Under the pieces are notes generated by a model. The model made no database searches and was not told the origin of the DNA. It saw only the letters and a program-made list of their open reading frames with translations. The position numbers and the translations under genes were made by a program. This document shows, in pieces, positions 20,598 to 26,298 of a stretch of DNA of 64,000 bases. The stretch's first letter is position 1; each line of letters begins with the position of its first letter. The stretch is from Protoeuglena noctilucae (Eukaryota): positions 744,001-808,000 of the forward strand of contig OY253682.1 in assembly GCA_958009085.1 (NCBI GenBank), given 5' to 3'.

Positions 20598-21617
20598 ATG
20601 ACCCGCTCCTTGGCGGTCTTAGTCCTTGAAGCGGGATGGGGTGCCTTCTCGGGGCTGGGGACGCCCAAGGGCTTGCGTAAGGCCTTCACGACCCGGGGAC
20701 CCCGCCAAGTCTTCGATGCGGAGGCGCGGAGGGCTCAGGTGAGCTCGCAATCACGAGCAGGGTGGGCGAGAAGGCAGTGACTATTTCCTCGTGCTCTAAG
20801 TGCTTTCCCAAACACGATCCCGTTGCCCTTGCAGGACGTGATGCGGGCGAGCTGGGAGTGGCTCGCTGGCCAGGGCTTACCAGTCGGCGACACCCCCACG
20901 GTGCACGTGGTGCCGCCAGAGTCCCCGTGGGCCCATGGGAGGCGGGGCCGGCTCGAGCAGGCCTGCATGACCAGCCCAGGGTTCGTTCCGCGCGCCCCAT
21001 CCGCGTCCCACGACCAACCGCGCCACGCCGCATCCGTCACCCTCGCCACCGGGCAGGTCCTCGACTGGCCTCTTCCAGCCATCATCGCCGTGGCGGGGCT
21101 GACCGACGCTCACCTCGGTGCGTTACTCGTGCGAGAGGGCGTAGGGTGCCACCTGCAGGCCCGGGGCGCCTTCACGCGCCGAGAGCTGCCGCCCCACTTC
21201 AGCTCCGACCTCCGCACGGGTGCGGTGGTGCCCGCCACGCCACTCTCTGTGATCCCTGCGGTGGTTCGGGACTGTCTCTGCGACCTGTTCGCCCATCAGT
21301 GGCTCCGCGGGAGGGCAAACGACGAGGTGTGCTCGGCGCTGCTTGCGGACTTGGAGAGCCGGGACGCGGGCGCGGCTGGCAGGGGCGAGGGGGGAAGCGT
21401 GCGTCGCAAGGCAGGGGTGCGTGGGGGAGCAGAGGGCAGTGAGCGGCCCACCGGGTCACCGGATGAGGACGGGGACTGCGCAGAGTGTTTGACGCGAGTG
21501 GAAACATCGGGGATCCGCAACGCACCTCTGAGGCGAGCACGTGGCTGGGCTGGTGATGCTGATGTGGGCGTGGCGAGATGTGCAGGGCGGACGCTAGGGT
21601 GTGACCGCGTGTTTTGA
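20598..21617 (+). CDS. DA1-like (DUF3633) peptidase-domain protein with degenerate zinc motif; start uncertain
   Basis: AIIAVAGLTDAHLGALLVREGVGCHLQARG and VVRDCLCDLFAHQWL align by eye with DA1 [30 protein letters not shown] and VEEGICQVLAHMWL. Putative intron about 20739-20834. Confidence 0.5.
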
Positions 21618-21961
21618 TGTGATGCGCAGGGAGGCGATGCGGGCTTCCGCGGTGTTTGGGATGGCCGGCACGCTGGAGCGGGTGCTGCTCATGGGCGCGC
21701 GCAAGTGCCGGTCGTGGGAGGCGGTGCACTGCCTGGGAGCGGCGAGGAAGGGGCGTGAGGCCGGGTCGCCGTAGACAAACCTGCAGTCAGCTTGGCTGTG
21801 CTGCGTCGGATCTGCGAATCTGAATACTCTCTGTCTTAAACCCTGCCCTAGCTACACGGCGCACGGCACGCACTCCCTGACGTGTTGCTGCGCAAGAACG
21901 ATTGGAGACTGAAGGGTGCTACCCACGCGCCACTCTACCCACTCCTGGGTGCCACCCCGCC

Positions 21962-22684
21962 TCACTCGAGGTCCAGGCACAGCAGCATGCGATCAAACCC
22001 CATGCGCCCTCCCTCAGATGCCTCCCTGGCGACCCGAAAGCCCAAGCTCTTGTACAGCGCTCGCGCAGCCGTGTTGTCCTCGTCTACCTGGGCATACACA
22101 CGCGGCGACCCGAACTCCGCACGGACCAGGTCGATGGCCGCCCTCATGACGGCGGCGCCCACCCCGCGGCCGCGCGCATCCTCGCGCACGCAGACGTTGA
22201 GGACGAACGCCGCGTCCTCCTCCCCCGCTGGTGCGAGGTTGTCGCGCCCGCGGGCTCCCGGGACGGCGCTCCGGGGCGGCCTCACGTCCGCGGACGCCAC
22301 CACCCGCCCCGAGGAGTCCCTGGCCACGAGGCACGTCACCGAGGCGCGACCGCCGGACCTGGGAACCACCGTCTGCTCTGCGAGCCTCGCCAGCTCCCTC
22401 TCAGCGAACTGCCGGCGGAACGTGTCGCGGAAACGGCTCGAGTCGTCCTCGAAGTACGCGTCCGCGCGAATGCAGGCGGTCTCGCGCAGGTCTGCATCGC
22501 CGCTCGCCACGGCGACCACGACCGGCATGGCGTTGGGCGTCTCGTTCGTCGACGACCCCGGCGCAGCGGCAGAACGCGCAAGTAAGCGGCATCTAGTTGT
22601 CCGAATGCGTTGCGGGGTCGCCCGGGGCCGCGCAGGGCGGGCGGCCAAGGCATGCCCGGCCAGGGCCAGGCGTGCGCACGTCAT
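21962..22684 (-). CDS. GNAT-family N-acetyltransferase with predicted chloroplast transit peptide (single exon)
   Basis: Arg/Ala/Ser-rich N-terminus, CIRADAYFED..SRF, acetyl-CoA-binding motif A (VLNVCVREDARGRGVG), motif B (VDEDNTAARALYKSLGF). 240 aa. Confidence 0.9.
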   Translation of the reverse strand: MTCARLALAGHALAARPARPRATPQRIRTTRCRLLARSAAAPGSSTNETPNAMPVVVAVASGDADLRETACIRADAYFEDDSSRFRDTFRRQFAERELARLAEQTVVPRSGGRASVTCLVARDSSGRVVASADVRPPRSAVPGARGRDNLAPAGEEDAAFVLNVCVREDARGRGVGAAVMRAAIDLVRAEFGSPRVYAQVDEDNTAARALYKSLGFRVAREASEGGRMGFDRMLLCLDLE

Positions 22685-23188
22685 CTACGCCGAGGCAAGC
22701 TCAGGGAAGCACTGCGGGGCGTAAGCGAGCAATTCGTATCGTGGAGCGGTTGATGGGCGGCGGAGGCGGTCGCAGAGCGCGCGGGGAGGGGCGCACCTGA
22801 GCCAAAGGCAATTTGTCGTGCTTGCTCTCCCAGTGGCCCTTGAGCTGGACCTCCGACGCTGTCTTCTGCGAAAAGACGCGAGATGCGATGCGTGCGTGGG
22901 GCCCGCGTCCCCCGCGGGACCGGCAGGTGGCGCAGCGTGATCGGAAACCATGCCATGCTCACCATGAACGTCTGGCGGCACACTTGGCATACAATGCTCA
23001 TGGACGCCTGGTTCGTCTTCAGCTGCGACACGCCTCCAGCCTTGTCCTTGGCCTTCTCCAGGTTCCGAGCCTGCGGACCATAGGAGCCGTGCGTGCAGCA
23101 AGCCGCCAGAGCCATCAGGAGCTTCCTAACCCAAAGCCTGGACGCTCACGCGCTTCGTCGCGGCCTTCGCGCCGTTCCCTCCGCCCAT
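22685..23188 (-). CDS. Small C2H2 zinc-finger protein (ZNF706/At2g23090, 4F5-like family), 4 exons
   Basis: Spliced product MGGGNGAKAATKR|ARNLEKAKDKAGGVSQLKTNQASMSIVCQVCRQTFM|KTASEVQLKGHWESKHDKLPLAQ|CFPELASA*, with CxxC...HxxxKH...CFP. All introns are GT-AG. Stop TAG at 22685-22687. Confidence 0.9.
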
Positions 23189-23510
23189 TTTCAGGATTAT
23201 CTGGAATCAGGACGTTGCTCCAACCAGCAGTGCCACCGGAGGCACGCTACCAGCGGACTGGGCAAGACCTGGATGCGGCGAACGGAAGCAGCGGCCGTTT
23301 GTGCGCACCAGAGCCAGCTGTTGCACCGCAGGACCGATGTTTCAGCGGCACGCTCAGCTTCATGCGTTTCCTCGCCGATCTCCACCGTTCATCTACTCGC
23401 GCGGACTTCCTTAGGCAACCGTGGACTCTGGAGTAGCAGCGGACGTTGGCAAGCACACGCTCCATCTGCACGCGGGTGGCAGCTGGGCTGGCGGGGGAAG
23501 GGGGCGCGAC

Positions 23511-24030
23511 ATGTGAGCGCTCTTTGCATGGACCTGTTCTCGGATGCGTCACTATGCTCCGGGGTCGAGCAGGGGGCTTCGCTCGAGAGCGCACGCACAC
23601 GTGGCTGAGCTGCTGCCCAGGACTCGCGTCTCAGCTTCACATCTGTGCTCGTGTTAAGCGACGTGAAACCTGTGAGGGGTACGTTCATCGCAGGGCGGGC
23701 CATCAGCCCCCCGCTCCGCGGGTGGAGCTGGACGAGCAGTGGGACGCGGCGCTCGAGTATTCGATACGATCCGTCATCTACAGCACCATCGGGGGATGCG
23801 TAGCGGCTTATTCACTCTTCCGTGAGTCCTAAGCGATGCTGTCGGCGCCCGCGCTCGCGATGCGAGCCGTGGGCCCCAACCGGTGCCATGCCCGACTCCC
23901 CGCAGGCACCCCCGGGACGCGCAAGATGGTCATGGGCATCGGCTTTGGTTTTGGCATGGGCAACGCCTTCCACGCGAGCCAGCGCGAGCTGCGCCGGCTC
24001 TGGGGTCACAGCGAGGAGCGCGCTGCTTGA
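23511..24030 (+). CDS. MIC10: MICOS complex subunit MIC10 (DUF543), 3 exons; start codon split by intron 1
   Basis: AT (23511-23512) | intron 23513-23693 | G gives MAGHQPPAPRVELDEQWDAALEYSIRSVIYSTIGGCVAAYSLFR|TPGTRKMVMGIGFGFGMGNAF. The WD motif and the GxGxGxG motif in the second TM are characteristic of MIC10. Confidence 0.8.
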
Positions 24031-24273: not shown

Positions 24274-26298
24274 TCACGGCTCGTAGCACAGCATGGGCCT
24301 CAGCCACTTCTCCATGTCCTCCACAGGCCGCCCCTTGCGTGCCGCATAGTCCGCCACCTGCTCCTTGGTGATCTTGCCGACCGCAAAGTACTTGGACTCC
24401 TTCGCGGCGAAGTACAGGCCCGACACGGACGCGGCCGGCAGCATGGCGAGGCTCTCCGTCAGCTCCACCCCAATCGCGTCCTTCACGCCCATCAGGTCCC
24501 ACATGGTCTCCTTCTCCGTGTGGTCCGGCTGAGAGGGGTAGCCCGGCGCAGGGCGGATGCCCCGGTACTTGACCTTGAGCAGGTCCGGGCACGAGAGGCG
24601 CTCGTCGGGCGCGTAGCCCCACATCTCGCGCCGGACGTCCTCGTGGAGCTTCTCCGCAAATGCCTCGGCCAGGCGGTCGGCAAGGGCCTCGGCCAGGATG
24701 ATCTTAGGTGCGGGAGAGAGGGGGTCGGGGTCGGTGCACCAGTGACGGGCCAGGCGAGGGCGCGGGGGTGGCAGCACAGGCGACGGCACAAGAGGGAGCT
24801 AGCACAGGTCAAGGCGCAGTGGCACAAGTTGCAGGAACGAGGCGACGTGACTAAACGTGCCTTGCCACCCCACCCCACATGACCTGCACGCTGTGTCTCA
24901 CACACAGGCACCACCCTGCTATCCCATGCCTCACCTTGTAGTCGTCGTGGTCCTTCTTGTAGTGCTCCGTCAGCTTCTCGAGGCCGAAGCCAGCCGACAC
25001 TACGAACATCCCCAGGTAGTCCTTCAGCCCCGTCGACTTGGGGGCAATGAAGTCTGCGGGGTGACCAGGGGCACAATGGTTGTCAGGTGCCCAACGGATG
25101 GGATGGCACCAAGCAGCATGAAGAAGCAGATAAGTGACAGGCCGGCTTCTGCACCTAGCTATATGTCCCACGGCTCTCTGCTCTAACACACGTCCACCCC
25201 CAGCCTCTTCCCACCCCACGTACTCACCGGACACGCAGCAGTAGGGCTCGCTGCCTTCCTTCTCCGCCTGCTGCCTCAGCCCGAAGAACCGCGCCCGCAC
25301 CGCCTCGCGTCCCTCGTCCGCGTACACCTCGATGTCGTCCCCCGCCGCGTTGGCCGGGTAGATGCCCACGATGCCGCGCATCGTGAGGAGGCGCTTCTCG
25401 CGCATCTCCGCCAGCATCGCCTGGGCCTCGTCGAAGAGCTTCTTGGCCTCCACGCCCACCGTCTCGTCCTTGAAGATGCGGGGGTAGCCGCGGTTGGGGT
25501 ACCGCCCACGCAGCTCCCACACCTGCGGGAGGACGAGCGAGGGGCAGGCCACGCGTCAGGGCTGTGGTGGTTGCAGCTGCCTCTTAGACTGCCATGCCTG
25601 GCGGTGAGCGGTGTACAACATGGAGCGCCACCCTGTCAGTGGATCGCACAGCTCATCTGCGGCTGTGTGTCCCCGCCAGCACCCATGCGTTCGCCTTGGC
25701 AATCCCCACCTGCCGCCTGCGCCTTGCCTGGAAGAAGGGGTTCCAATCGATGTAGGCGAGGACGTCCTCGATGGAGCACTCGATGGCCTTGGTGCCGACG
25801 AAGTTGGGGACGGCCGGGCGGTTGGCCTCGTCAGCCCAGTCCACCACCGCCGGCCGGGCGCGGGCGGTGGCCAGGTCCGCGTACCTCCGGTCCTCCAGCC
25901 CCGCGTAGAACTGGTCCCTCATCTCCGCGTACTGCTCCCGGACGTCCTCTTCGAACGACTCCCGCACCTCCGCGGCCTTGTCGACCAGGGCCTGGGCCAC
26001 GGGCACGGCACGGGAGGCGTCGAGGACGTACACGGTCGTGCCCGTGTAGGCAGGGGCGATCTTGACGGCCGTGTGCATCTTGGAGGTGGTGGCGCCGCCG
26101 ATGAGGAGGGGCGTGCGCAAGCCTCGCTCCTCCATCTTGCGCGCCACGGTGACCATCTCGTCCAGCGAGGGCGTGATGAGGCCCGACAGGCCGATGAGGT
26201 CGGCGCGGTGCTCGGCGGCGGCGTCGAGGATCTTGTCGACCGGGCACATGACGCCCAGGTCGATGACCTTGAAGTTGTTGCACCCCAGCACGACCGAC

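Follow-up and report, generated by a model that had tools for sequence, protein, structure and literature searches.

In the genome of Protoeuglena noctilucae, a short spliced gene of zinc-finger type is followed on the same strand by an intronless gene for a GNAT acetyltransferase, and the stop codon of the first directly abuts the start codon of the second. How can the second open reading frame (ORF2) be expressed, when no nucleotide separates it from the first (ORF1)? The pair lies on the minus strand of a 64,000-nt stretch (hereafter the window; forward-strand positions 744,001 to 808,000 of contig OY253682.1, GenBank assembly GCA_958009085.1), whose G+C content is ∼67% throughout, and positions given below refer to this window unless another locus is named. 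The junction letters on the minus strand are GCC TCG GCG TAG ATG ACG, with the TAG at 22687–22685 and the ATG at 22684–22682, and the two ORFs are in the same frame. This zero-spacer, in-frame junction had been picked out by a sequence-only reading of the window as a candidate bicistronic locus, and its coordinates and letters were confirmed. Because both ORFs matched protein families and the pair recurred in related loci, the TAG–ATG pairing was not regarded as a product of chance ORFs. Two family-supported ORFs stand on one strand with a spacer of 0 nt, far below normal intergenic spacing; spliced RNA contigs bridge both of them, and the gene order is kept in two of three distinct related loci. 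The locus is very probably a conserved bicistron.

Spliced RNA contigs across the two reading frames

Seven public RNA-labelled runs from three studies matched the locus, four of which were mapped onto positions 21300–23700. The data were Logan contigs assembled from marine metatranscriptome short reads, not single molecules; runs X5 and X7 covered the locus only in part, and stretches without RNA cover in some runs (e.g. 23256–23409 and 21543–21623) were not used as evidence. A contig of run X4 (record 5, 23255 to 21829 on the minus strand, 1166 nt without the three introns) was aligned in the blocks 23255–23149, 23069–22963, 22865–22797 and 22711–21829. A contig of run X1 (record 1, 1436 nt) showed the same blocks from 23246, and then continued into the neighbouring gene. 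Both contigs were continuous from the 5′ untranslated region (UTR) through the four exons of ORF1 to the end of the GNAT ORF, and both showed all three joints as CT..AC on the plus strand, that is GT..AG on the minus strand, exactly at the predicted introns. In run X7, from another study, record 10 joined 22797 to 22711 and reached 22620, crossing the TAGATG junction. At its other end this contig kept 62 nt of intron 2 (22866–22927) with intron 3 spliced, at a depth of 3.55, and may thus represent an incompletely spliced precursor or else an RNA starting inside the zinc-finger gene. No joint was found inside the GNAT ORF in the RNA contigs, in agreement with the earlier call that it is intronless, and no differing letters were reported at TAGATG.

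The bridging of both ORFs by these contigs gives strong support for a shared mRNA, although it falls short of proof, since the contigs are assemblies and that of X1 had merged a neighbour. We infer from them a single molecule carrying both ORFs. The mature RNA reconstructed from the contigs is ∼1.17 kb long and extends from ∼23255 to ∼21835. Its 5′ UTR (23189–23255, minus strand) is at least 58–67 nt long according to the contig 5′ ends at 23246 and 23255, and is free of ATG; the nearest ATGs upstream of the ORF1 start are 175 and 204 nt away from it. The 3′ UTR (21829–21961, minus strand) measures ∼120–130 nt, as judged from three runs whose RNA contigs stop at 21829, 21837 and 21844. The usual green-algal poly(A) signal, TGTAA, was absent between 22684 and 21700; a single TGTAG, which we take to be a variant of it, was located at 21856–21852, just ahead of the contig ends.

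The last exon of ORF1 was as predicted by the sequence-only reading. Exon 1 (23150–23188, minus strand, 13 codons) begins with the start ATG at 23188–23186 in the context CTGAAA ATG GG, and its donor joint was seen in X1 and X4. Exon 2 (22963–23070, 36 codons) contains three further ATGs, at 23001–22999 (in frame), 22990–22988 (frame 2) and 22965–22963 (in frame). Exon 3 (22797–22865, 23 codons) encodes the zf-met2 core, and both of these exons are bounded by joints in the RNA contigs. The coding part of exon 4 (22685–22711) comprises eight codons and the TAG, with the exon 3–exon 4 joint present in X1, X4 and X7. The spliced coding length is 243 nt, that is 80 codons and the stop, and the three GT..AG introns are 79, 97 and 85 nt long. 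The start context gaaaATGg and the internal ATGs noted in the earlier reading were thus confirmed. An alternative splice from exon 1 to the AG of the TAG, which would join exon 1 to the GNAT ATG, was also considered; this joint was absent from the contigs, though contigs drop rare forms.

The two predicted products and the gene pair in related loci

Exon 3 alone scored 28.9 bits against Pfam zf-met2 (PF12907), above the gathering cut-off of 27, which placed the ORF1 product in this family as the ZNF706/At2g23090-like protein that had been proposed. Exon 2 alone scored 19.8 bits against SERF-like_N (PF04419), under the cut-off of 22.3. The single-exon part of the orthologue in a related locus (L004, described below) gave 57.3 bits for zf-met2 (E 1.7e-15), and matched PDB entry 1wvk (At2g23090) over 62 residues with an E value of 2.7e-10, reaching the C-terminal CFP motif. 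The product therefore shares zf-met2 with the At2g23090/ZNF706-type proteins, and here its gene is at the same time the upstream cistron of a GNAT. No longer protein containing the zinc-finger part was found in the protein search, which is weak evidence.

ORF2 (21962–22684, minus strand) consists of 240 codons and a TGA at 21964–21962. It matched Pfam Acetyltransf_1 at residues 112–216 (22351–22037) with 58.1 bits (cut-off 20.7, E 1.3e-15), and so belongs to the GNAT family. An exhaustive protein search with this GNAT returned 838 representatives at E ≤ 0.001, 50 of them at E ≤ 1e-10, and superseded a word-index search that had given two matches among 8000 scored candidates. Identity to the nearest relatives was 44–51%. 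The nearest feature clusters in the Atlas were chlorophyte GNATs (score 0.97), and the best structure cluster, with a TM of 0.70 over 192 residues, carried the name GCN5-related N-acetyltransferase 6, chloroplastic-like, a name that is taken as a lead only. ORF2 has the GNAT fold and Acetyltransf_1 in common with the plant plastid-type GNATs, within a eukaryote-wide family that has variable N-terminal extensions; the likeness to the plant proteins is one of cluster name and fold. In an alignment of the query with 24 of its best 35 relatives, the conserved core began near query residue 54–60, and every aligned relative carried a variable N-terminal extension of 40–130 residues. The first 52 codons of ORF2 (22529–22684) encode 13 Ala, 9 Arg and one acidic residue. 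An Ala/Arg-rich, nearly acid-free N-terminus is typical of green-algal organelle presequences, suggesting that this segment is a presumed organelle presequence and that the protein may be targeted to the plastid.

Two side observations concern the GNAT sequence. A copy in the protein database (P0001, corresponding to window 22648–21965) begins with residue 13, where the 1321-nt contig that encodes it has its edge, and therefore public gene calls carry this GNAT in truncated form only. One RNA contig of X5 (depth 3.6) lacks one base at 22185 inside the GNAT ORF. Faulty assembly or variation between strains is the probable cause; a genuine deletion would put the rest of the ORF out of frame.

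To follow the gene order in other lineages, a check that the sequence-only reading had proposed, metagenome contigs were scanned with a six-sequence GNAT alignment, and the five loci obtained were searched locally by tblastn with the spliced ORF1 product and inspected. The zinc-finger gene followed by the GNAT on one strand was found in four of the five loci, which represent two of three distinct sequences (L001, and the group L002–L004), and was missing in L005. In L001, whose GNAT is 47% identical to that of the window, ORF1 has three exons and 77 residues and ends with TAG; an in-frame ATG 39 nt further on opens a GNAT ORF of 436 codons. In the second group (GNAT 44% identical; L003 and L004 have the same sequence across the pair, and that of L002 is nearly the same), ORF1 has two exons with a GC donor and 80 residues and ends with TGA. 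The ATG 23 nt after this stop, in frame +2, opens a GNAT ORF of 264 codons and is the only Met before the core. Thus the spacer was at most 39 nt in three lineages (0, 23 and 39 nt) despite divergence of the GNAT to 44–47% identity. To judge from these contig sequences, the pair appears to be colinear across lineages in the manner of a green-algal bicistron. The number of ORF1 introns varied from three in the window to two in L001 (822–1164 and 1270–1597) and one in L004 (3103–3575, 473 nt, GC donor).

In L001 the GNAT core is preceded by ∼260 residues rich in Ala, Gly, Pro and Arg (1727–2515), and an unrecognised intron is possible there; the database protein for this locus (P0002) starts at a later in-frame ATG, at 1814. 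Upstream of the pair in the window, on the same strand, lies an exon for the C-terminal part of a methionine-synthase-like protein (24274–24789, minus strand), named from the reading of its sequence. It is 79% identical to the exon found upstream of the pair in L002–L004 (L004 2060–2494), and the order MetH, zinc finger, GNAT is therefore common to the window and this group.

Possible routes to translation of the second frame

Our best explanation of the locus, to which we give about an even chance of being right as a whole, is a conserved green-algal bicistron in which one mRNA would yield two separate proteins, mainly by leaky scanning. One promoter in the ∼150 nt between 23256 and a divergent plus-strand gene would drive the pre-mRNA, and removal of the three short introns would leave the ∼1.17-kb mRNA with ORF1 (an 80-residue zf-met2 protein with a possible SERF-like N-terminus) and ORF2 (a 240-residue GNAT). 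Most ribosomes would translate ORF1; of those coming from the 5′ end, few would initiate at AUG 22684 and translate ORF2. The likeliest course is that 43S complexes would scan past the ORF1 AUG and three internal AUGs of weak context; reinitiation after termination, at the abutting AUG, may contribute. The GNAT would be made with its 52-residue presequence, separately from the zinc-finger protein. The parts of this explanation are not equally firm. A shared mRNA is quite likely real, and it seems nearly certain that two separate proteins are made rather than a fusion. Leaky scanning as the main route to ORF2 was judged, on our analysis of contexts and published loci, to fall a little below an even chance.

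Obligate bicistronic nuclear loci of green algae have been described by Gallaher et al. in 2021 (PMC7896298) and by Duenas et al. in 2025 (PMC11892635), the latter listing 36 loci of Chlamydomonas and 43 of Auxenochlorella. The present locus is like those described in having a short ORF1 before a longer ORF2 on one strand, a short 5′ UTR, a tiny or absent spacer, colinearity in other species and spliced RNA over both ORFs. The medians given for Chlamydomonas and Auxenochlorella protothecoides, respectively, are 357 and 291 nt for ORF1 (243 nt here), 183 and 40 nt for the spacer, and 83 and 54 nt for the 5′ UTR (PMC11892635). The published loci differ in that they were demonstrated by Iso-Seq, by which they were exclusively polycistronic (PMC11892635), whereas the locus here is known from spliced short-read contigs and sequence. 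It also differs in its strong-looking ORF1 start, lack of AUG depletion and weak ORF2 context.

In the same paper, weakening or removing the ORF1 start by mutation of the Kozak sequence or of the start codon raised the output of ORF2; the authors favour leaky scanning and do not fully discount reinitiation (PMC11892635). The inverse relation was obtained in vivo and in vitro on algal bicistrons, and leaky scanning is directly supported by experiment in two algae. The Auxenochlorella table gives an inter-ORF distance of 0 in 5 of 43 rows, with others at 2, 5, 5 and 10 nt, and at least three AUGs before ORF2 in 15 of 43 rows, with a maximum of 19; according to the SI text, the ORF1 stop and the ORF2 start overlap at some loci (PMC11892635). 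The sequence-only reading had held that leaky scanning fits the locus poorly, and that reinitiation or readthrough would be needed. The sequence facts behind this view were correct, namely the A at −3 and G at +4 of the ORF1 start and an undepleted number of internal ATGs. The necessity of another route did not follow, as leaky scanning is still favoured for published loci with inter-ORF distances of 0 or with at least three AUGs (PMC11892635), and the internal ATGs here are weak. A zero spacer and several upstream AUGs are thus already in print for green algae. The pair itself appears to be new, and the mechanism is not, because both features fall within the range described in that work. No entry for a zinc-finger/GNAT pair was found in the supplements of PMC7896298 and PMC11892635 by text search, which addresses names and not homology, and literature searches on the pair and on At2g23090 gave nothing relevant among the matches listed.

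Several observations weigh against the explanation by one message and leaky scanning. Judged by the general rule of a purine at −3 and G at +4, which may not be the consensus of this organism, the ORF1 start is strong in all three lineages (A at −3 in the window). ORF1 in the window contains three internal ATGs against 2.9 expected, i.e. there is no depletion, and the ORF2 AUG of the window, with T at −3 and A at +4, is weak. Of the related loci, L005 (GNAT 40% identical) lacks a zinc-finger gene in the 4 kb upstream. As to the RNA, the X1 contig merges not only the two ORFs but also the convergent plus-strand gene (21628–21453), and therefore assembly can join overlapping transcripts; X1 and X4 were sampled in the same study; and X7 record 10, starting in intron 2 (22927), has no AUG ahead of the GNAT AUG, with which an internal transcription start is also consistent. 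The features that tend to accompany leaky scanning (a weak ORF1 context, few AUGs and a stronger ORF2 context) were thus not seen in the window; they are tendencies and not requirements. In favour of leaky scanning, none of the three internal ATGs of the window has G at +4, and each has T at −3. The related loci contain one internal ATG each, against 2.1–3.0 expected, and their ORF2 AUGs share an identical good context, GCGAGG ATG GC.

The first alternative, which we consider rather unlikely, is that the mRNA is shared and ORF2 is reached mainly by termination-reinitiation, with termination at the UAG, retention of the 40S subunit and restart at the abutting AUG. It would suit the distances of 0, 23 and 39 nt from stop to start in three lineages, and the strong ORF1 start in all of them is what a route needing translation of ORF1 would call for; moreover, the ORF2 AUG of the window is weak for scanning. 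A pentamer TGGGA at 22832–22828 in exon 3, 58 nt before the ORF2 AUG, is presumably similar to motif 1 of the calicivirus reinitiation element. This motif was at chance level: shuffling of the last 100 nt produced it in 2273 of 20000 cases (∼11%), and neither L001 nor L004 has it at the corresponding position. RNA folding in five windows around the junction gave z values of −1.3 to +1.1, nothing beyond the shuffles. Viral stop-start termination-reinitiation is known from the coupling of calicivirus and influenza B type, in which, as here, the stop and the start abut after a full-length ORF. In contrast to the viral cases, no element of the type termed TURBS was recognised here, the TGGGA being unconserved and no flanking stem being detected, and the locus specifies a cellular spliced mRNA. 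In Chlamydomonas, a marker placed a few nucleotides after long ORFs was expressed, and reinitiation was invoked (Onishi and Pringle 2016); as noted above, Duenas et al. do not fully discount it either. On the other side stand the inverse relation of ORF2 output to ORF1 start strength in other algal bicistrons and the length of 80 codons, which, going by the literature, is long for unassisted reinitiation. In its narrower form, in which the GNAT would be expressed chiefly by coupled termination-reinitiation at the UAG-AUG after an efficiently started 80-codon ORF, the spacer having collapsed to zero, the proposal appeared somewhat less likely again.

A second alternative, that most of the GNAT protein comes from a separate monocistronic mRNA with its start within the zinc-finger gene (in intron 2, for instance), the bridging contigs representing overlap of this RNA with a zinc-finger mRNA or a non-productive readthrough transcript, was regarded as improbable. 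It is consistent with X7 record 10, which runs from 22927 with intron 3 spliced and has no ATG between 22927 and 22684, with the merging of a neighbouring transcript in the X1 assembly, and with the compactness of the genome, in which ∼150 nt separate the divergent genes. The X7 contig, however, could equally well be a pre-mRNA from which not all introns had been removed. For a zinc-finger mRNA of its own, polyadenylation would have to take place within the GNAT ORF, where neither TGTAA nor TGTAG occurs. The persistence of a spacer of at most 39 nt across three lineages at 44–47% GNAT identity, and the exclusively polycistronic nature of the published algal bicistrons by Iso-Seq (PMC11892635), also argue against it.

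Thirdly, ORF2 might start at its first downstream in-frame Met codon, Met 53, and the 156 nt after the TAG would then be an ordinary spacer, with no presequence. The sequence-only reading had been right about this Met and one position off, at 22529; the codon is 22528–22526. It stands directly before the first conserved GNAT residues in the context AACGCC ATG C, with G at −3, and the G+C content at third codon positions over the first 52 ORF2 codons (0.75, 0.67 and 0.78 in the three frames) singled out no frame. ATG 22684 was nevertheless favoured as the GNAT start, because two out-of-frame ATGs, at 22653 and 22592, intervene before Met 53, the aligned relatives carry N-terminal extensions of 40–130 residues, and L004 has no alternative Met before the core, its ATG lying 23 nt after the ORF1 stop. 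The name of the nearest structure cluster, a chloroplast GNAT and again a lead only, points the same way. The earlier opinion that ATG 22684 is probably real therefore stood, and a start at Met 53 seems quite improbable.

Readthrough of the UAG at 22687–22685 into a 321-residue zinc-finger–GNAT fusion with an internal presequence, although ORF2 is in frame with ORF1 without an intervening stop in the window and in L001 (39-nt spacer), is hardly credible, because ORF2 of L004 is in frame +2 and zf-met2 or SERF-like_N was found in none of 59 GNAT relatives at E ≤ 1e-4; two in-frame lineages of three are close to chance, longer zinc-finger proteins were not found (weak evidence, as said), no RNA structure lies downstream, and UAG before an A is not known to favour readthrough. 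About one third of the published pairs are in frame as well, and the authors argue against readthrough (Gallaher et al. 2021, PMC7896298). The readthrough suggested by the sequence-only reading was accordingly dropped.

With leaky scanning kept as the preferred main route, the locus adds a conserved pair, a small zf-met2 and possibly SERF-like protein gene followed by a GNAT gene, from a marine GC-rich lineage of uncultured type, to the catalogue of green-algal bicistrons. It overturns nothing, as zero or overlapping spacers have been published for green algae, and so have loci with several upstream AUGs. Its use lies in the natural series of spacers of 39, 23 and 0 nt, each with a strong ORF1 start, which could separate leaky scanning from reinitiation experimentally and therefore offers a useful test of how far leaky scanning explains the translation of ORF2. 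If coupled reinitiation were true, the locus would represent stop-start coupling of the viral kind in a conserved cellular gene pair, and the output of a plastid acetyltransferase would be tied to the translation of a small zinc-finger protein. Gene callers would tend to miss or mis-join such a pair.

Neighbouring genes

A convergent plus-strand gene (21437–21790) ends ∼40 nt from the 3′ end of the bicistronic RNA, or overlaps it. The joint of its last intron is at 21533–21629; a shift by 2 makes this joint GC..AG on the plus strand, and it is in the X1 contig that its transcript is fused with that of the pair. On the other side, RNA of a divergent plus-strand gene was observed at 23410–23513, spliced to 23695 onward in X1 and X5, and the start of this gene is ∼150 nt from the 5′ end of the zinc-finger RNA. 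No counterpart of the divergent gene was found in L002–L004. A small ORF of this gene (23836–24030, plus strand) has a glycine-zipper-like stretch.

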